Part shown: one piece after another, positions 12,000 through 58,706 of the stretch
How the letters are laid out: each line of letters opens with the position of its first letter
How positions within the stretch are numbered: position 1 is the stretch's first letter
NCBI GenBank assembly: GCA_963768425.1
Contig: CAVYHV010000017.1
Coordinates: 32,001-96,000, forward strand
Source: Candidatus Bathyarchaeota archaeon
GTDB taxonomy: Archaea; Thermoproteota; Bathyarchaeia; Bathyarchaeales; Bathycorpusculaceae
DNA length: 64,000 bases
Reading direction: 5' to 3'
Notes under the pieces: model-generated
Told to the model about the DNA's origin: nothing
Seen by the model: only the letters and a program-made list of their open reading frames with translations
Databases searched by the model: none
Program-made: the position numbers and the translations under genes

Positions 12000-12596
12000 G
12001 TGGGAAATCAAAGGTCTGGCGGCAGATGGCCCGACTCGGGCTTGAAAGAGAAATTGATGCTTTTCGGCCAATTCGTCGGCGACTGGGACATTGTTGAAGC
12101 CAGGTATATGCAGGCGGATGGAACTTGGGTCAAGATGCATGGAGAGGTTCATTTTGGATGGATTCTTGGCGGCAGCGCGGTGCAGGATGTTTGGATGGGT
12201 TGCAAAGAAGGATCTCAGAAGATGACTCTTTTTGGAACAACCATCAGATTCTATGACCCACAGATTGATGCTTGGCGCAGCACCTGGCTGTCTCCATTGA
12301 AGGGTCTTGTGCAAGCGTTCATAGCTCGAAAAGTCAACGATGACATTGTTCTTGATCTTCAAAACACAAATGGCTATCCCGAGAGATGGATATTCTCACA
12401 AATCACACCGCAGTCTTTCAGATGGCATGCTGAGGAAACACATGACGAAGGCAAGACTTGGCTGACAACCGAGGAAATGCAAATCAGCGAAAATCCCCGA
12501 TGGGCACTAAAAATTATTCTTTGGCGACCTCAGTTTGACGGAACTTATTTTTCGTCTAATTGCGGGATTCGCCTAGCAAGCTCAACCCAGTTTTGA
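12000..12596 (+). CDS. Conserved hypothetical beta-barrel protein (DUF1579-like); termini uncertain
   Basis: LFGQFVGDWD, FGWILGGSAVQDVW, GTTIRFYDP and SFRW...DEGKTW motifs; 3' overlap with the next gene suggests an indel. Confidence 0.6.
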   Translation: MGNQRSGGRWPDSGLKEKLMLFGQFVGDWDIVEARYMQADGTWVKMHGEVHFGWILGGSAVQDVWMGCKEGSQKMTLFGTTIRFYDPQIDAWRSTWLSPLKGLVQAFIARKVNDDIVLDLQNTNGYPERWIFSQITPQSFRWHAEETHDEGKTWLTTEEMQISENPRWALKIILWRPQFDGTYFSSNCGIRLASSTQF

Positions 12597-13192
12597 GAAA
12601 CACTCTGTTTTATTAATGGTTTGATGTTGGCGAAAACCGGCGTTGGCATCAAAGTCATCCAACCCTTTGTAACTACGAATTGATCTTCCAGATCAAGCAA
12701 CGGGAAAAGCCATTGAATAAAAGCTGGAAACCTGCTGGGAGGCACTTGTTTTGACATTAAGCCTCCAATTTGAGCTTGCTCACTCTCAGATGTTCTTTCT
12801 CTGAGAATAGCATATAGATGGGCATCTTCCTTATCCAGATGAATCCGAAGATGCGTGGACAGGGCTATTGTAGCTCTTGCCGCGTTCAGCGGGTCAGGCG
12901 CTTTACGGATTTCTTCTATCCCAGCAACCATGCGGTCAAGTTCACGATGATCCATCAGGTAAGCTTTGGCTACAAGAGGCGCCACGTTGTCGACAGCGGG
13001 AAAAACCGCGACTTCCTCGCCCTTAGCATGATAATCCAGAGCCTCATCCATAAGATGCAGGCGATCCAAAACCAAAGTTAGGTCCCCTCCGCCGCGGGCT
13101 ATTTTAAAGACGGCATCATCAATCTGGAAAACGTCACGGCGAAACGCGTTATGTAGAGCACGCACAATATCAATTGGTCCTGACAAAACCAA
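12545..13192 (-). CDS. Hemerythrin / HHE cation-binding domain protein
   Basis: H-NAFRRD, HAKGEE..FP, DHRE and HLDKED motifs. Confidence 0.85.
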   Translation of the reverse strand: MVLSGPIDIVRALHNAFRRDVFQIDDAVFKIARGGGDLTLVLDRLHLMDEALDYHAKGEEVAVFPAVDNVAPLVAKAYLMDHRELDRMVAGIEEIRKAPDPLNAARATIALSTHLRIHLDKEDAHLYAILRERTSESEQAQIGGLMSKQVPPSRFPAFIQWLFPLLDLEDQFVVTKGWMTLMPTPVFANIKPLIKQSVSQNWVELARRIPQLDEK

Positions 13193-13388
13193 CAGCCTCT
13201 TATAAAAAATTCTCCGTCAAACTATTAACAGTTGTGCTGTTGTAGCTCTGAGGCCACAAGATTGGAAGGTCATATTTTTTTGCTTATAGCGTAAACCAAT
13301 AATTTTTGTCTTATCTAAAGAGATATGTGAAGACTAAAAGTCTTTAGCCCAAAGTTTAAAAATGCCAGCTATGTATCATCTGAAAACG

Positions 13389-13436
13389 TGGCGGGTGAGT
13401 GGACCTCCATCCGTTCCGCCATTATAAAACCCGGAG
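13389..13436 (+). ncRNA. Candidate preQ-type riboswitch-like pseudoknot, leader of queC-queT
   Basis: TGGCG/CGCCA stem, loop TCCG able to pair with CGGA, unpaired C before the P1 3' strand, tail TTATAAAACCCGG; 34 nt after TATA TTTAAAAA (13355). Confidence 0.5.
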
Positions 13437-13450
13437 TAGGAGGAAAAAGT

Positions 13451-13573
13451 TTGAAAATCGAGAAAACAAAAAAGGTAATATTGGGTGTTTTTGCCATTTT
13501 GATAATGGCCTCAACCGAACTTGTGATCCAACAATTTAGTCATTCTTTGCCTTTTTTTGAGGTGGAAACATGA
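13451..13573 (+). CDS. Possible 40-aa hydrophobic leader ORF coupled to queC
   Basis: SD-like AGGAGG, TTG start, MKIEKTKKVILGVFAILIMASTELV..., TGA overlapping the queC ATG (ATGA). Confidence 0.4.
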   Translation: MKIEKTKKVILGVFAILIMASTELVIQQFSHSLPFFEVET

Positions 13574-14331
13574 GGAAAGCAGTTGTAATGTGTAGCGGAG
13601 GCGTTGATTCCGTTACAACTCTTTATTTCGTTGCGAAAGTGATTCGAGCCAACCCGATCTTGGTCATAAACGCAGATTACGGTCAACGGATGGTCAAGGA
13701 AGAGCGCTGGTGTGTGAAGAAGGCTGTTGAAGATTTGGAGAGGCAAGGCTTCAAAGCTACTTACAAAGAAATCGACATTTCGTGGATGAAAGAGCTTTCC
13801 ACAAGTTTGTTGGTCAAAGATGATGTTCCTGTGCCGGAGACACCTAAAGAAGATATCTGGGATGCAGGGAAAGCGAGAGAGAGAATTCTTAGATGGTGGG
13901 ATGTTGTTCGCAACACGATGTTGCTGACTATCGGCCTGGCTCATGCAGAACACTTTGATTTAGACAGTTACATCAAAACAAAAGAACGCGACATCTACGA
14001 TGTTTACATAGGAATCAGAAGAGAAGGACCCGTTATGATGAAGGACAACACCCCGGAATTCGTTGCGGAGATGAATCGTCTTGTTGAGCATGCAACTCAC
14101 TTCGGCGGATACAAAATCTCAGCGCCCCTGCTTGAAGTCGACAAAGACGGCACGGTTGCATTGGGAAAAGCATTAGGTGTCAACTTCTTGTACACCTACA
14201 GCTGCTACCAAGGATGGGACTGGACCGAAAAAGGTGAACCTGTCCATTGCGGCTTCTGCAGTAACTGCCGACGAAGAAAAGAAGCTTTTACCCTCGCTGG
14301 AATACAGGACCCAAGCAAATACGCACGTTGA
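13570..14331 (+). CDS. queC: 7-cyano-7-deazaguanine (preQ0) synthase QueC-family protein
   Basis: SGGVDS PP-loop, DYGQR, RN, APLL..DK, TYSCY and HCGFCSNCRRR Zn motif, AGIQDP. Confidence 0.85.
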   Translation: MRKAVVMCSGGVDSVTTLYFVAKVIRANPILVINADYGQRMVKEERWCVKKAVEDLERQGFKATYKEIDISWMKELSTSLLVKDDVPVPETPKEDIWDAGKARERILRWWDVVRNTMLLTIGLAHAEHFDLDSYIKTKERDIYDVYIGIRREGPVMMKDNTPEFVAEMNRLVEHATHFGGYKISAPLLEVDKDGTVALGKALGVNFLYTYSCYQGWDWTEKGEPVHCGFCSNCRRRKEAFTLAGIQDPSKYAR

Positions 14332-14816
14332 AAAACATGAAAACTAAAACCATAGCAGTTGCCGTTATCTACGCCTCGCTTTACGCTGCGTTGGTCATCG
14401 TGTTGGGACCGTTCAGTTATGGACCTGTACAAGTACGAATAGCCGACGCGATGGTGGCTTTAGTCCCGATCTTCGGCTGGGCTGGAATACTTGGACAGGC
14501 ATTAGGGGTCTTCATATCTAACATTTTCAGTCCACTCGGCTGGATTGACCTGCTAAACACGATTCCAAGCTTCATAATGGCATATGCAATTTGGAAACTA
14601 AGAAACACAAGCGTTATCGCGGGAACAGTAATGTACTCGATAGTGCTGGCAGTCACCGTAGGCGCAATGCTTAGTTACGTGTACGGACTGCCGCTAATCG
14701 CCGAATTCGCCTACGTGCTGATAGGAAACCTAATTGCATCAACAGTCATCGGATACCCAGTGTACAAAGCGATCAAGAAAACAAACCTCCAAAGACGGCT
14801 TGAAACCGAAAAGTGA
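14328..14816 (+). CDS. queT: QueT-family queuosine-precursor transporter (ECF S component)
   Basis: IYASLYAALVIVLGPFSYGPVQVRIADAM...G.FISNIFSPLGWID signature. Confidence 0.85.
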   Translation: MKNMKTKTIAVAVIYASLYAALVIVLGPFSYGPVQVRIADAMVALVPIFGWAGILGQALGVFISNIFSPLGWIDLLNTIPSFIMAYAIWKLRNTSVIAGTVMYSIVLAVTVGAMLSYVYGLPLIAEFAYVLIGNLIASTVIGYPVYKAIKKTNLQRRLETEK

Positions 14817-14818
14817 GT

Positions 14819-14840
14819 TTATTCTTTTTTTCTTTCTTAA
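14819..14840 (+). terminator. Oligo-T archaeal terminator after queT
   Basis: TTATTCTTTTTTTCTTTCTT directly after the stop codon. Confidence 0.55.
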
Positions 14841-14966
14841 AGAACCTTCTGCACCCCCCTCCGTCTGTTTCTGCGTCCATCGGTGATATCTCATGCCCCT
14901 TGTGTACAGGGAACAGAAGCCGAGCAAACCCAGATTCATGAGGATTTGTGGCACGGCTTTAGCTTG

Positions 14967-15812
14967 TCACCCGAACTTTCCGAATATGAATGAAAGCAAA
15001 CCAAAAACGAACAGGAAAAGAACCAGCTTCTTTATTTGGCGAGCATTCTCACGTGAAGGATTTCTAATCAAACTCGCAGAACACCAAACTAACCCAACGT
15101 CAGTAACAAGCACGAACGGAACGAACCAAATTGAGACTAAATTAAAGATCAACGGAAGAGGTGACAGGCAGACTGCTAAAATGAAGAAGCCAGCCGCTGC
15201 ATAAGCCGCTTTTCTTTCCCCGAAGGATACTGCTAGAGTTTTGATTTTATTTATGCCGTCGCCTTGCACGTCAACTATGCCTTTGGCGATTTCCCGTCCT
15301 GTATTGGAAAGGAATGCCATGGATGCGAAAAGCAAAATGTTGACCTTGATCAAATTGACGGCCACAAGGCTGCCATATAGAAAAGGCGCGGCTACGCATG
15401 CGCTAACCAACAAATTGCCCGCAAATCCCCGTCTCTTCCCAACAGTTGAGTAAGCCATCATTATAACCCAAGCTGCAAAAGCAAACAAAAGGCAATAGAC
15501 ACTTATCGCGAGGGCAGCGGCCAAACCTACAACCGTCAGAAAACCCGTTAGCAACAAGGCGGCTCTCTTGGATACGGCGCCGCTTGGGATTGGGCGTAAA
15601 GGCTCATTTATTTTGTCGATGTCAAAGTCGTAATAGTCGTTGACCGCCATCGAAGCCCCAGTCAAAGTGAACGCGGTTACTACTCCGTAAACCAGGTTCA
15701 TCCAGTGAATGGCGCTGACTCCCGCTAAGCTAACGCCCACGAGAACGGCGAAACTCATGACTATGCAGTTCACTGGTCGAAGCAACCTAAACAAGCCGCT
15801 GATCTTAACCAA
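14967..15812 (-). CDS. Digeranylgeranylglyceryl-phosphate synthase (UbiA family)
   Basis: RLLRPVNC, NDYYDFDIDKINEPLRPIPSG and REIAKGIVDVQGD motifs; multiple TM helices. Confidence 0.9.
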   Translation of the reverse strand: MVKISGLFRLLRPVNCIVMSFAVLVGVSLAGVSAIHWMNLVYGVVTAFTLTGASMAVNDYYDFDIDKINEPLRPIPSGAVSKRAALLLTGFLTVVGLAAALAISVYCLLFAFAAWVIMMAYSTVGKRRGFAGNLLVSACVAAPFLYGSLVAVNLIKVNILLFASMAFLSNTGREIAKGIVDVQGDGINKIKTLAVSFGERKAAYAAAGFFILAVCLSPLPLIFNLVSIWFVPFVLVTDVGLVWCSASLIRNPSRENARQIKKLVLFLFVFGLLSFIFGKFG

Positions 15813-55136: not shown

Positions 55137-57218
55137 TCAATGTTTCGCCTCTTTTTCACTTAGTTGCTCAAGCATAGTCACCAAGCTGTTGGTAGCTGGT
55201 AGGCAGGTCTGGTCGCGGCACACATAGGCAGTTGTTTTGCCTTCGATTTGCTGGTAACCTAAGCCTCCCTTATCTGGATGCTTAAGTTGGACTACGGTTG
55301 TTGGCAGGTAATGTTGCCTCAATATCTTGAGCATTTCTAGCGTGTCTTTTGAGTTGATGTCGCCGACGACTGTGACCATGTAGGATGGACCAAGCTGAAA
55401 GTCAAGTCCTGAGAGAAAGAACGTGTAGGCGTCGGGTGCCCCTTCAACTTCTGCAGCAAAAGTCTTAATCATTTGGGTTGCCATCTGGTCGTAAGTAGGC
55501 TCGTTGGTCAAGCGGCTAAGCCACAGCAAGTCAATAAGTGCCACTGAGTTGCCTGATGGAATTGCGCCGTCGTAGAGTTGCTTGATTTTAGGCATGCCCG
55601 CGGGTGCGCTTTGTGTTTGGTAGAATCCTCCGTTCTGCTTATCCCAAAACTTGCTGACCATGCTTTTAGCAAGGTCTGCGGCGGCTTGAAGGTACACATC
55701 ATTGAACGTTACCTCGTAAAGCTGCATTAACCCATACGTTAAGTAGGCATAGTCGTCTAGAAACGCCTCAATTGCAACTTCGCCTTTCGCGTAACGATGA
55801 TACAAAACATCGCCTTTGCGCATGTAATTCAATATGAAGTCTGCAGTCTTAGATGCCGCATTCAAGATACGCTGGGGTCCCAAACACACTCCCAGCTTTG
55901 GCCAAAGCTGCAATCATCAGGCCATTCCAATCGGCCAAGATCTTGTCATCAACCGGCTGGAGCAACCCGTTTCTGTCTCTGCTTTAAAAAGGGCATTTTG
56001 GATTTTTCCCATCTCCATAATCAGCTGATCGATTGTCAAACCCTTGTATGAAGCAAGGTCTTCAAGGGGTTCTGCGATGTGGAGAATGTTTTTGCCGTTG
56101 GCATGCCCTCTTTCGTCAGGGTAGTTTCCTTCTGGTTTTAAGCCGTAGAGGTGCACTGCCAGCTCTGCATCTGCAGGAGATAGAACATCGAGAACTTCAT
56201 CGACCGTCCACAGGTAAAATTTGCCTTCTTCACCCTCGGAGTCAGCATCCTGAGCTGAGAAAAACCCGCCTTCCCCACCCGCAGGCAAATCACGAAGAAC
56301 ATATTCTATTGTTTCTTTCGCTGTTATTTTGAACTTGGGCGCACCTGTCGCCTGATAGGCCTCAGCATACGCCATTATCAGCAACGCTTGGTCGTAGAGT
56401 GTTTTTTCGTAATGCGGAACTAGCCAGCTGGGGTCGGTGCTGTACCTGTGAAATCCAAAACCGAGTTGGTCAAAGATTCCGCCCAAACGCATTTGGCGTA
56501 AAGTGTTTTCAGCCATAGACAGCGCATTTTTCTCTCCTGTGTGAGAATAGTGACGCAGAAGATAGAGGATTTTGTGTGGAGTAGGGAACTTTGGTGCTGA
56601 CCCGAACCCGCCGTTTTCTTTGTCGTATTCCAGCTTTAGACGGTCGAACCCATCCTGCAAGACTTCTGTGGTTAGTTGGTTTTGGGGTGTTCGTTTTTCG
56701 ACGGCTTCTATGCGTGATTTGATGTCAGCGCCCACCATTTCCATTTGGGAACGCTGGGTTTTCCATATTTGCGTCACCTGCGGCACAAGATCCAGCATGC
56801 CGATTATTCCTGGCCGACTGTGTTTGGGTATGTAGCTCTGAGCATAAAATGGGTTCAATTTAGGCGTCATTATTATGTTAAGGGGCCAGCCGCAGTTTCT
56901 GCCCATAGCCTGGCAAACTGCCATGTACGAAGCATCTAAGTCTGGTCTTTCTTCGCGGTCAACCTTTATGCATACAAACGCTTGGTTAAGCAAATCTGCA
57001 ACTTGATTGTCGCTGAAGCACTCCATTTCCATGACGTGGCACCAGTGACAGGTCGAATAGCCTATGCTGAGGAAAATTGGCTTTTCTTCTGCTTTGGCTT
57101 TAGCTAAAGCTTCTTGTCCCCATGGGTACCAGTCTACTGGGTTGTAGGCGTGTTGGAGAAGGTAGGGGCTTTTTTCATTGATAAGCCTATTGGACTTTGT
57201 TTCCTGTTTTGGCTGCAT
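55137..57218 (-). CDS. YyaL/SSP411-family thioredoxin-domain protein; frameshift ~55950
   Basis: [51 protein letters not shown] and FLDDYA. Confidence 0.92.
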
Positions 57219-57447
57219 AAAAGGTGCCTTCTTGTTTTCAATATGTTCAGTGTCTTTTATTAACTGTTAGGGTTTGGAGACTTCTTTTTTTCAACACGTT
57301 TACTTCTGATGAAACCCGCCATCCTATTGGGGTCTCTTCTTGAACGCGAAGGAAGCCTTGTCCAAGCTGCTGCCGAGCGCCTTTGAATTGAATAAACAGG
57401 GAATGAAGAAATTTAAATAGTTCTGGATTGATAGTTGCGTTTCTCGC

Positions 57448-57485
57448 GGTAGTTTCCGTATATAACCTACCTTAAAAAACCCGGG
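57448..57485 (+). ncRNA. Candidate preQ1-I-like riboswitch aptamer, leader of queT
   Basis: GGTAG-TTTCCGTATATAAC-CTACC-TTAAAAAAC-CCGGG; 36 nt after TATA TTTAAATA (57412); abuts the start region. Confidence 0.6.
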
Positions 57486-57494
57486 TTGAATAAA

Positions 57495-57986
57495 ATGAAA
57501 TTGAATGCCAAACAATTAGCTGTGATGGCTATCTTCGCCGCCTTGTACGCGGTTGGAGTTATTTTTTTGGCGCCCATAAGCTTCGGTCCAGGCCAAATAA
57601 GAGTTGCTGACGCAATGTTGCCTTTGACGATGATTTTTGGGCTTCCGAGCGCGTTTGGTCTCAGCTTAGGTTGCTTGGTCTCTAATATTTATAGTCCATT
57701 TGGAGCAATCGACATATTTGGTGGGGCAGTTGCAAATCTAGCCGCCTGCGTTCTAGGATGGTACATTGGAAGGAACGGAGGAAGGATTCTACGTTTTGCA
57801 GCAACCATTTTGCAGTCAGCTATAGTTGCTTTAATCGTTGGAACGTACCTTTCACCGTTGACTAGTGTGCCTCTGATGCTAAGCATATTCGGAGTGCTTA
57901 TTGGAGAAATCGTTGCAATCAACATCATTGGGTATCCACTTCAAGAAGCCATCAGGCGGAGCAAAATCTTCAGCAAATTCAGTTAA
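57495..57986 (+). CDS. queT: Second QueT-family transporter
   Basis: IFAALYAV..FLAPISFGPGQIRVADAM...GCLVSNIYSPFGAIDIFGG. Confidence 0.88.
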   Translation: MKLNAKQLAVMAIFAALYAVGVIFLAPISFGPGQIRVADAMLPLTMIFGLPSAFGLSLGCLVSNIYSPFGAIDIFGGAVANLAACVLGWYIGRNGGRILRFAATILQSAIVALIVGTYLSPLTSVPLMLSIFGVLIGEIVAINIIGYPLQEAIRRSKIFSKFS

Positions 57987-58022: not shown

Positions 58023-58598
58023 CTATTTTTGCAGTTGACAGGACCTTATGCATTCAACTAGTGACTTAAGATTTTCCATGCCTTCATCTAACGTGACGAA
58101 GTTTTCGACGGCGCCTATTGCTTTGCTTGGAACGATCACGACTACTTTGCTTGCGAAAGGTCGGCTGAAGCCTAGTTCAGACGCAGCTTCATCCGTTAAG
58201 GCAACCTGTAAGCCGTTAACTTGCCAATCGTTGAAATCTACATCTAAACCCTCAACTTCTCCCACTAGAAAGCCATTTGGGCTAACTACTCTTTTGCCTT
58301 CAACTTTGACACTTTTTACCTGAATTTCTTTTTCCGCGACATCTTTGATGTTTCGGATTGGTTCCTTAAGAGTTATTACGTCGCCAACTGCGGCTATCAG
58401 TTGAGTCGGCAGGCAAATCATTATTCTGCGCAGGAAGGGCTTTTTCAAGTTAAGTTCTGCCGCTGCTTCGTTGCTGAGGACGATGCAGAAGGCGGTTAGT
58501 TGCCACAGGTTGAAGTCGACCTGCAGATCGTTGATTTCGCCTAATATGTAACCTTCTGTTCCGACTACTTTCTTGGATTTTAACAATAGAGGATTCAT
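58023..58598 (-). CDS. Tandem PRC-barrel protein
   Basis: Two repeats of K.VV...G..lGE...L.VD...WQ. Confidence 0.8.
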   Translation of the reverse strand: MNPLLLKSKKVVGTEGYILGEINDLQVDFNLWQLTAFCIVLSNEAAAELNLKKPFLRRIMICLPTQLIAAVGDVITLKEPIRNIKDVAEKEIQVKSVKVEGKRVVSPNGFLVGEVEGLDVDFNDWQVNGLQVALTDEAASELGFSRPFASKVVVIVPSKAIGAVENFVTLDEGMENLKSLVECIRSCQLQK

Positions 58599-58706
58599 CG
58601 GATTCACTCGCTTGCTAACTTCAGATGCTTCCAGAATAAATAATTTGCTTAAGTGTCGGTCCGCCGAGCGAGGCATGTTGAAGTATTTTTTGGCGATTAG
58701 CGTGTT

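Follow-up and report, generated by a model that had tools for sequence, protein, structure and literature searches.

Two small elements in archaeal DNA, each preceding genes of 7-deazaguanine salvage and synthesis, are very probably structured cis-regulatory RNAs, and we put at about 0.6 the probability that both are metabolite-binding riboswitches that turn translation off. The DNA, termed the window below, is the whole stretch of 64,000 nucleotides (nt) analysed here from Candidatus Bathyarchaeota archaeon (GenBank assembly GCA_963768425.1, contig CAVYHV010000017.1, positions 32,001 to 96,000 of the forward strand), and positions are counted from its first letter. Copy A (13389-13443) precedes a 40-codon open reading frame (ORF), queC and queT, and copy B (57448-57485) precedes a second queT; both leaders lie about 35 nt downstream of a TATA-like box. 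The transcription start, the switching, its direction and the ligand, a 7-deazaguanine, are what we infer beyond the RNA structure itself.

Covariation points to a pseudoknot that engages the Shine-Dalgarno sequence

The folded RNA leader of copy A, about 65 bases in size, comprises in order a helix strand P1, loop L1, an arm, loop L2, the second strand of P1, loop L3 and the 3' strand of helix P2, which runs into the Shine-Dalgarno (SD) sequence. These parts and the promoter element before them are:

13355..13362, + strand: TATA-like box TTTAAAAA, recognised by its sequence
13389..13394, + strand: P1 5' strand TGGCGG, partner 13416-13421, from covariation
13395..13403, + strand: L1 GTGAGTGGA, near-invariant and purine-rich, able to pair with the anti-SD arm; proposed anti-sequestor
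13404..13413, + strand: anti-SD arm with the P2 5' strand CCTCCATCCG, partner 13432-13443, from covariation and RNAalifold
13414..13415, + strand: L2 TT, invariant
13416..13421, + strand: P1 3' strand CCGCCA, covarying with the 5' strand
13422..13431, + strand: L3, the A-rich tail TTATAAAACC with two invariant C at its end, from type A alignments
13432..13443, + strand: P2 3' strand CGGAGTAGGAGG, which continues into the Shine-Dalgarno sequence, with CGGA at 13432-13435 and AGGAGG at 13438-13443

The original prediction, made from the letters of the window, had described the element at this place, and its letters and location were confirmed by the sequence, TGGCGG beginning at 13389, 34 nt past the start of the box TTTAAAAA.

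Pairing was assessed in an alignment of 92 homologues of copy A, hereafter type A sequences, in which pairs are numbered by alignment column. Both strands of P1 had changed together: pair 5-44 was GC in 81 sequences, AU in 6, UA in 1 and GU in 3; pair 9-40 was GC in 79 and CG in 13; and pair 4-45 was UA in 42, AU in 5, CG in 4, GC in 1 and UG in 1. Double changes were likewise present in all six pairs of the SD-proximal part of the helix between arm and SD (arm:SD helix), for example in pair 29-76 (UA 74, CG 14) and pair 30-75 (CG 72, UA 12, UG 6), and G-U pairs were frequent (UG 18 at 21-78, UG 13 at 32-72). Altogether 12 of 18 pairs displayed double changes, which recur across different families, and 93.5% of cells were paired as compared to 42-60% with slid partners; none of 500 shuffles matched the observed values, a count that overstates significance because related genomes are not independent. 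The CCG/CGG core was invariant, as were CCGTT (92 of 92 sequences) and the CC before CGG at the end of an L3 tail whose length varied from 8 to about 20 nt. RNAalifold picked the arm:SD helix unprompted, although its input alignment was one fitted to P1 and the hairpin, and arm:SD duplexes were more stable between cognate strands (-16.7 kcal/mol) than between non-cognate ones (-14.6 kcal/mol), the cognate value being reached in 0 of 2000 permutations. Since P1 engages the loop of the arm:SD helix, type A leaders are predicted to be H-type pseudoknots built from P1 (GGCGG/CCGCC) and a long anti-SD arm:SD helix.

Several details of the fold first proposed for copy A could be revised on this basis. 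That P2 overlaps the Shine-Dalgarno sequence was upheld by the covarying arm:SD helix, and the small hairpin GTGG-ACCT-CCAT (13399-13410) is also predicted by RNAfold. P1 does pair, although in the register (U)GGCGG/CCGCC(A) and not TGGCG/CGCCA. The supposedly unpaired C at 13416 pairs with G13394, a pair that is G-C in 79 of 92 homologues and C-G in 13, and the TCCG thought to be a loop (13410-13413) lies within the arm. The alternative pairing CGGGU/ACCCG was rejected as a conserved helix, as it showed no covariation in the 92 homologues and was broken in 13 of them at one pair and in 50 at another. Also set aside was a longer 5' hairpin that would draw on the CGG of P1, which is incompatible with the 13 sequences having C-G as last P1 pair. 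Readings of L1 as a K-turn, as T-box-like or as a D-loop mimic were weighed by eye only; the GA/AG tandem expected of a K-turn is absent, and a T-box would require a larger element.

The same letters could in principle be a double-stranded DNA operator, bound by a transcription factor just downstream of the TATA box. The position between TATA box and start codon is typical of archaeal repressor binding, and P1 and the hairpin have a dyad symmetry that symmetric changes preserve. The many conserved G-U pairs are nevertheless meaningless in DNA and make sense on one strand only; the helices are interleaved and interrupted by bulges, the Shine-Dalgarno sequence itself supplies one strand of the long helix, and arm and SD co-evolve in pairing energy, not in sequence. 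The G-U pairs and the interleaved helices argue for an RNA read from the sense strand, and we regard an operator as highly improbable.

Copy B belongs to a second subtype

Copy B reads GGTAG-TT-TCCG-TATATAAC-CTACC-TTAAAAAACC-CGGG, with the following parts:

57412..57419, + strand: TATA-like box TTTAAATA, starting 36 nt before P1
57448..57452, + strand: P1 5' strand GGTAG, partner 57467-57471
57453..57458, + strand: L1 TT and P2 5' strand TCCG; TTTCCG is invariant in type B
57459..57466, + strand: L2 TATATAAC, its last base an unpaired C beside P1; AAC is invariant in type B sequences
57467..57471, + strand: P1 3' strand CTACC, from the sequence
57472..57481, + strand: L3, the A-rich tail TTAAAAAACC, from the sequence and its relatives
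57482..57485, + strand: P2 3' strand CGGG, abutting the TTG at 57486 and the ATG at 57495, from the sequence

Here P1 could not be extended by the neighbouring letters, and the C before its 3' strand cannot pair. Relatives of this leader, termed type B, were nearly invariant and were found in 7 of 7 metagenome relatives of the second QueT for which upstream DNA was available; three relatives extended P1 to 6-7 base pairs (bp). The type B H-type pseudoknot, consisting of P1, P2 and an A-rich L3, was recognised by inspection rather than by covariation. In most relatives the CGG of P2 is also the 5' part of an SD-like GGTGA, GGGAG or GGGGTGAT, and P2 would accordingly occlude the SD in part.

The original prediction had taken both copies for examples of a single motif and had read their differences as covariation. 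This did not hold: covariance models built from relatives, R1 for type A and R2 for type B, each found their own copy only. R1 detected copy A alone in the 2.96-Mb genome, at 66.8 bits with the next best place at 15.1, and R2 copy B alone, at 77.6 bits with the next best at 16. When searched with the opposite model, each element was still ranked first and in register, at 7.5-9.9 bits (E 0.2-1 in 20 kb), a weak match that is suggestive of a shared architecture and no proof of homology. Copies A and B are thus the only two such elements in this genome.

How far short strings may be trusted was apparent from shuffled sequence. By itself AAAACCCGG is weak evidence, with 2 matches in the window against 0.79 expected and 18 of 100 shuffles reaching 2, while the composite pattern TCCG..C, five nt and TTAWAAAACCCGG had two matches in the window and none in any of 100 shuffles. 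The exact 13-mer tail TTAWAAAACCCGG occurs in the genome at these two places only, and the four places that differ from it by one mismatch have no stem.

Type A is widespread among Bathyarchaeia and type B is rare

Within the genus, QueT was detected in 35 of 41 genomes, and a leader was found directly upstream in 30 of the 30 QueT loci that were fetched, 23 of them copy A-like and 7 copy B-like. Type A was present in 115 of 151 genomes of the order, spanning 53 of 63 genera and all 12 families, in 85 of 151 genomes sampled from the class and in 26 of 151 from the phylum, where it was confined outside the class to three families (9/15, 3/3 and 2/2 genomes). Type B gave 6 solid matches in the order besides the source genome (151 genomes), all before genes like the second queT, and solid matches in 2 of 151 genomes of the class, namely the source genome and G108, which is among the six of the order. 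Type B is therefore rare and type A widespread.

When every prokaryotic species, represented by one genome, was scanned for the pattern, at least 120 stretches were returned. Among the matches listed were 80 loci, 65 of which passed the type A model, and all 65 bore archaeal labels (Bathyarchaeota or Bathyarchaeia, 'Nitrososphaerota archaeon', Methanomethylicota, one unclassified archaeon and two Asgard-labelled contigs of metagenome-assembled genomes, MAGs); the 15 listed loci that failed the model were all bacterial-labelled, GC-rich chance matches. The two Asgard-labelled contigs, L150 and L220 (Promethearchaeota/Promethearchaeati), carry type A leaders of 31.9 and 54.8 bits, and the QueT of L220 resembles those of Bathyarchaeia; mis-binning or gene transfer may account for them.

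Some low-scoring candidates were discarded as chance or degenerate copies. These comprised 11 R2 matches in the order with E > 1e-5, which had no QueT or QueC downstream, the locus L265, where the motif was absent, and L301-L303, which reached 24-25 bits only, L301 standing before an unrelated-looking ORF.

Both subtypes precede genes of one pathway

The genes behind the two leaders of the window are:

13451..13573, + strand: 40-codon ORF with a TTG start; its stop overlaps the queC ATG (ATGA)
13570..14331, + strand: queC-like gene (PF06508, E 3.2e-36; TIGR00364, 96.6 bits, under the cut-off of 150.3)
14328..14816, + strand: queT paralogue 1 (PF06177, E 2.8e-26)
57486..57986, + strand: queT paralogue 2 (PF06177, E 3.9e-30)

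This association was general. The type A set contained 143 distinct matches, 129 of them with a downstream ORF of at least 60 amino acids (aa), which was a QueT (PF06177) in 121 cases, a QueE-like radical-SAM protein in 2 and a membrane protein of about 232 aa in 4. The source genome and one relative have a type A leader, a short ORF and then QueC. At the 122 type A loci with at least 1300 nt downstream, QueT was followed by QueC in 52 and stood alone in 57; the order queC then queT was seen once, in the source window. Strong type A matches number 1-3 per genome, with all second and third copies examined preceding QueT paralogues, and all solid type B matches, in the order and in the metagenome relatives, precede QueT. 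The strong matches examined thus point to a pathway-specific regulon. The original prediction of an RNA-level 7-deazaguanine regulon with a structured leader is supported by these figures (121 of 129 QueT, 30 of 30 genus loci) and by the compensatory changes; it had suggested scanning the genome for hits outside the pathway, and the strong matches examined all lay before QueT paralogues and not before unrelated genes.

The overlap between the stop codon of the short ORF and the start codon of queC may pass control at the SD level on to queC by translational coupling. The middle of the short ORF is hydrophobic. The relative G016 (locus L009) has the same short ORF arrangement, and its genome gave no QueT match. 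That the short ORF is a remnant of a QueT N-terminus is no more than a suggestion, its best local score of 36 not being significant against a shuffle maximum of 30.8 +/- 3.8.

In four genomes a membrane protein of 229-234 aa replaces QueT (L105:1567-2262, L106:1570-2271, L107:1570-2271 and L120:820-1506 on the minus strand). It matched no Pfam or NCBIfam family at E <= 0.01 and, given its place behind the leader, could be a new deazapurine transporter. Two MAGs labelled Nitrososphaerota have type A directly before a QueE-like radical-SAM gene (L167:1504-2223 on the minus strand and L219:4556-5236), which matches TIGR03365 or TIGR04349 with E values of 1e-30 to 1e-31 and scores short of the cut-offs. 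The QueTs behind type A leaders are of at least two sequence types, ...RVADCLIPL... and ...FRVAG.LRP.IAKKW...., and some genomes have both, each under its own leader.

The remaining genes around the two leaders are unrelated to the pathway. Copy A is flanked by a divergent gene for a hemerythrin-domain protein (12545-13192, minus strand) and, beyond queT, by a UbiA-family prenyltransferase gene (14967-15812, minus strand) most like archaeal prenyltransferases; copy B is flanked by a divergent gene for a DUF255 thioredoxin-like protein (55917-57218, minus strand) and by one for a PRC-barrel protein (58023-58676, minus strand). The likeness of the UbiA-family gene and the labels borne by related contigs assign the genome to Bathyarchaeia. 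The region 13200-14900 of the window, or close relatives of it, is partly present in many peat and soil metagenome runs (word share about 0.3).

A proposed translational switch

We propose that both elements act in cis as 5' leaders of QueT and QueC mRNAs, for 7-deazaguanine salvage and synthesis. Each would form an H-type pseudoknot in which P1 (5-7 bp) closes a loop, the A-rich L3 crosses P1 and the 3' part of the loop (YCCG; in type A the whole arm, CCUCCNNCCG) pairs with a downstream CGGR. In type A the second helix would extend for about 10 bp into the SD, so that the pseudoknot would hide the ribosome-binding site; if instead the near-invariant L1 (GUGAGUGG) paired with the same arm, the SD would be freed. 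The junction of P1 and P2 would consist of the invariant UU, the CC of the tail and the G-C pairs next to them, and a ligand bound there would shift the equilibrium towards the pseudoknot and turn translation off.

Transcription would have to begin upstream of P1, and the promoter is consistent with this. In 142 homologous upstream regions the A+T content peaked at 85-89% from -34 to -28 relative to the first G of GGCGG. Archaeal TATA boxes usually lie about 26 nt from the transcription start. Given the peak and this distance, the mRNA would begin immediately upstream of P1, and transcription probably starts a few bases before that helix.

Type A leaders can form mutually exclusive pairings involving the SD, with a covarying arm:SD helix. 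Folded without pseudoknots, copy A is predicted to adopt P1 and an L1:arm hairpin (13395-13403 with 13404-13410) and to leave the SD free; this hairpin is the RNAfold optimum, and the two competing states lie within about 2 kcal/mol. Over the 92 type A sequences the mean energies were -17.0 kcal/mol for the SD-free fold, -15.2 kcal/mol for the arm:SD hairpin alone and -9.7 kcal/mol for the P1 duplex, all calculated for nested folds or duplexes with the energy of the pseudoknot excluded. Because the L1:arm and arm:SD folds are so close in energy, the RNA looks bistable, the L1:arm hairpin being a weak candidate for the competing structure. The near-invariance of L1 could be explained by a chain of constraints: the 16S rRNA of the source genome ends in ...GGATCACCTCCT, whose CCUCC would fix the SD, the SD would fix the arm and the arm would fix L1.

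A number of observations weigh against a ligand-operated switch of this kind, or against parts of it. Changes in the L1:arm pairs are mostly one-sided, from G-C to G-U, and the energy of cognate L1:arm pairing is only marginally better than that of non-cognate pairing, 109 of 2000 permutations reaching it. The invariant P1 core of type B provided no compensatory change among 20 sequences. Type A is devoid of the unpaired cytosine that reads the ligand before the 3' strand of P1 in preQ1-I riboswitches, and its pocket, if there is one, would be built differently from that of preQ1-I. Parts of queC (13575-13812 and 14066-14307) were found in 100%-identical contigs of two or three peat metatranscriptome runs; these contigs covered queC parts only and in no case the leader, on which they are uninformative, and contigs cannot show transcription starts. 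The exclusion of pseudoknot energies and the relatedness of the aligned genomes, both given above, count in the same direction.

Two other explanations keep the RNA structure and replace the ligand. The leader might be a structured RNA switched by a protein, either an RNA-binding regulator or a pathway enzyme such as ArcTGT or ArcS recognising a tRNA-like feature, that stabilises or opens the SD-masking helix. Structure and gene association fit such a switch equally well, ArcTGT is nearly universal in the order and the sequence of L1 is kept beyond what pairing needs. Against this, L1 may be held constant by the constraint chain from the 16S anti-SD to SD, arm and L1, no regulator gene is conserved in the neighbourhood, where QueT, QueC or QueE follow, and the short P1, A-rich tail and invariant junction letters are the anatomy of small-molecule pseudoknot aptamers. 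On balance we consider a protein-set switch unlikely. The leader might also work without any ligand, keeping translation constitutively low or temperature-dependent, or stabilising the 5' end of the mRNA. Masked ribosome-binding sites of this sort are common and the arm:SD helix is stable alone (mean -15.2 kcal/mol), but a covarying P1 pseudoknotted with the loop would then be left unexplained, as would the invariant UU and CC, the A-rich tail and the confinement to one pathway at 1-3 sites per genome, and to us this seems a quite improbable account. A small-molecule ligand remains the reading that we favour.

The pathway and the candidate ligand

A TGT-family gene of ArcTGT size was present in 97 of 101 genomes of the order. 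The source MAG, which is 91% complete, gave no TGT match, probably owing to an assembly gap; the gene was present in 7 of 7 other genus members searched. At E <= 1e-15, none of the 101 genomes searched from the order contained QueE, with a model that was positive in 7 of 14 controls and that scores archaeal QueE-like proteins of other lineages at 1e-25 to 1e-31. With ArcTGT present and no recognisable QueE, the order appears to import the deazapurine core, which suggests that it depends on imported 7-deazaguanine precursors for archaeosine. The source genome has a PTPS/QueD-like gene (C9:72590-72934), and in genome G100 a second, short TGT-family frame (C4:75967-76869, locus L304; 98 bits, 349 aa) immediately precedes a type A leader with its QueT.

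The ligand of the proposed switch is likely to be a guanine-like 7-deazapurine. According to the accessible part of PMC5372724, preQ0 is the substrate of ArcTGT, and it is for this reason our first candidate; the frequent QueT-QueC operon means that 7-carboxy-7-deazaguanine (CDG) is a candidate too. A more elaborate proposal would make type A an undescribed, archaea-specific class for a salvaged 7-deazaguanine, its pocket having an invariant UU and a CC in the tail in place of the L2 cytosine of preQ1-I. The two leaders of this genome, type A before queC and the first queT and the preQ1-I-like type B before the second queT, would then sense different compounds, for example CDG or another precursor as against preQ0, thereby partitioning two QueT importers; we hold this to be rather unlikely.

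Whatever the ligand, a small, strongly covarying leader of one pathway is near-universal in Bathyarchaeia and occurs also in Methanomethylicota-labelled genomes, in a domain where riboswitches are rare and such control is barely known. Should a 7-deazaguanine prove to be its ligand, archaea would have their first switch of this kind, one apparently restricted to them. The leader would then also be a naturally occurring variant, its pocket rebuilt, of the smallest aptamer fold known, and would offer archaeal genetics a ready-made translation switch under ligand control. The leader also marks salvage genes, among them the membrane protein of about 232 aa that is a possible new transporter.

Comparison with known systems

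Neither leader matched any of the 4227 families of Rfam 15, whether the window was searched at gathering scores or the regions 13250-13600 and 57350-57600 at E <= 10. In particular RF00522, the preQ1-I family with a cut-off of 39 bits, gave 0 matches in the window and none at E <= 10 on either leader, and 0 of 151 genomes of the order exceeded 39 bits, the best score being 24.2, and no site of type A or B was among the places listed; the Bacillus subtilis control was over the cut-off. RF01054 and RF02680 likewise gave no match in the scans of all Rfam families. A literature search found no description of either leader within a coverage that leaves out most subscription papers. The reviews PMC5473149 and PMC11625349, as far as their text was accessible, list no archaeal preQ1 riboswitch, and the accessible text of the 2024 preQ1 review contains no word beginning with 'archaea'.

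The closest likeness is to preQ1-I, of which types 2 and 3 are described in the accessible part of PMC11625349. Both leaders share with it a small H-type pseudoknot, a P1 of about 5 bp, an A-rich L3 and a P2 whose 3' strand lies over the SD; the genes that follow, queT and queC, are of 7-deazaguanine synthesis and transport, and preQ1-I, itself found before queT or queC(DEF) genes, is described in the text at hand as exerting translational OFF control. Copy B alone also has, as in the accessible accounts of that class, UU after the 5' strand of P1 and AC before the 3' strand, and the unpaired specificity C of the UC/AC motif is found in type B and absent from type A. Because the C before the 3' strand of P1 is base-paired in type A, this subtype lacks a defining feature of preQ1-I. 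An invariant UU takes the place of the unpaired C, L1 is of about 10 nt and a possible competitor, and P2 covers the whole SD with about 10 bp; in both leaders, moreover, the letters of P2 are YCCG/CGGR. The hosts differ as well, being archaea, which use preQ0 for archaeosine instead of preQ1 for queuosine, as stated in the accessible part of PMC5372724.

Both leaders might still be divergent members of RF00522, in which case only the host would be new. Type B does have the layout of that class as its accessible descriptions give it, with a 5-bp P1, UU, AC, an A-rich tail, a short P2 that reaches over the SD, and a queT gene. The absence of any RF00522 match at E <= 10 on the leaders, the best score of 24.2 bits in the order, a type A with no unpaired C, a 10-bp P2 and an L1 of about 10 nt, and the reviews, whose accessible text lists no archaeal preQ1 riboswitches, all speak against such membership, which we judge unlikely.

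The preQ1-II and preQ1-III classes (RF01054 and RF02680) resemble the two leaders in being queT leaders with pseudoknots and SD occlusion, and differ in forming larger HLout pseudoknots restricted to Bacillota and Ruminococcaceae (PMC11625349, in its accessible part). The only precedent that we found in print, in the portions of the sources available, is sRk28 of Pyrococcus abyssi and Thermococcus kodakarensis, a 70-nt RNA that contains a hairpin and, putatively, a pseudoknot (PMC3124441). It adjoins the QueC-like gene PAB1992 and was credited by its authors with features of a preQ1 riboswitch (PMC3124441, PMC4247193), and in T. kodakarensis it is an orphan transcript (PMC4247193). It is like our leaders in being archaeal and small, with a pseudoknot and a QueC-like neighbour, a comparison made by description only and with an RNA that, in the same accessible texts, was never validated, and unlike them in belonging to another phylum (Thermococcales). 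Archaeal riboswitch classes are otherwise essentially those for thiamine pyrophosphate (TPP) and fluoride, both shared with bacteria (PMC5473149, accessible part). As metabolite- or ion-sensing archaeal leaders these two resemble the elements described here, from which they differ in their ligands and in being shared with bacteria, type A being archaeal-labelled in 65 of 65 model-confirmed loci among the matches listed.

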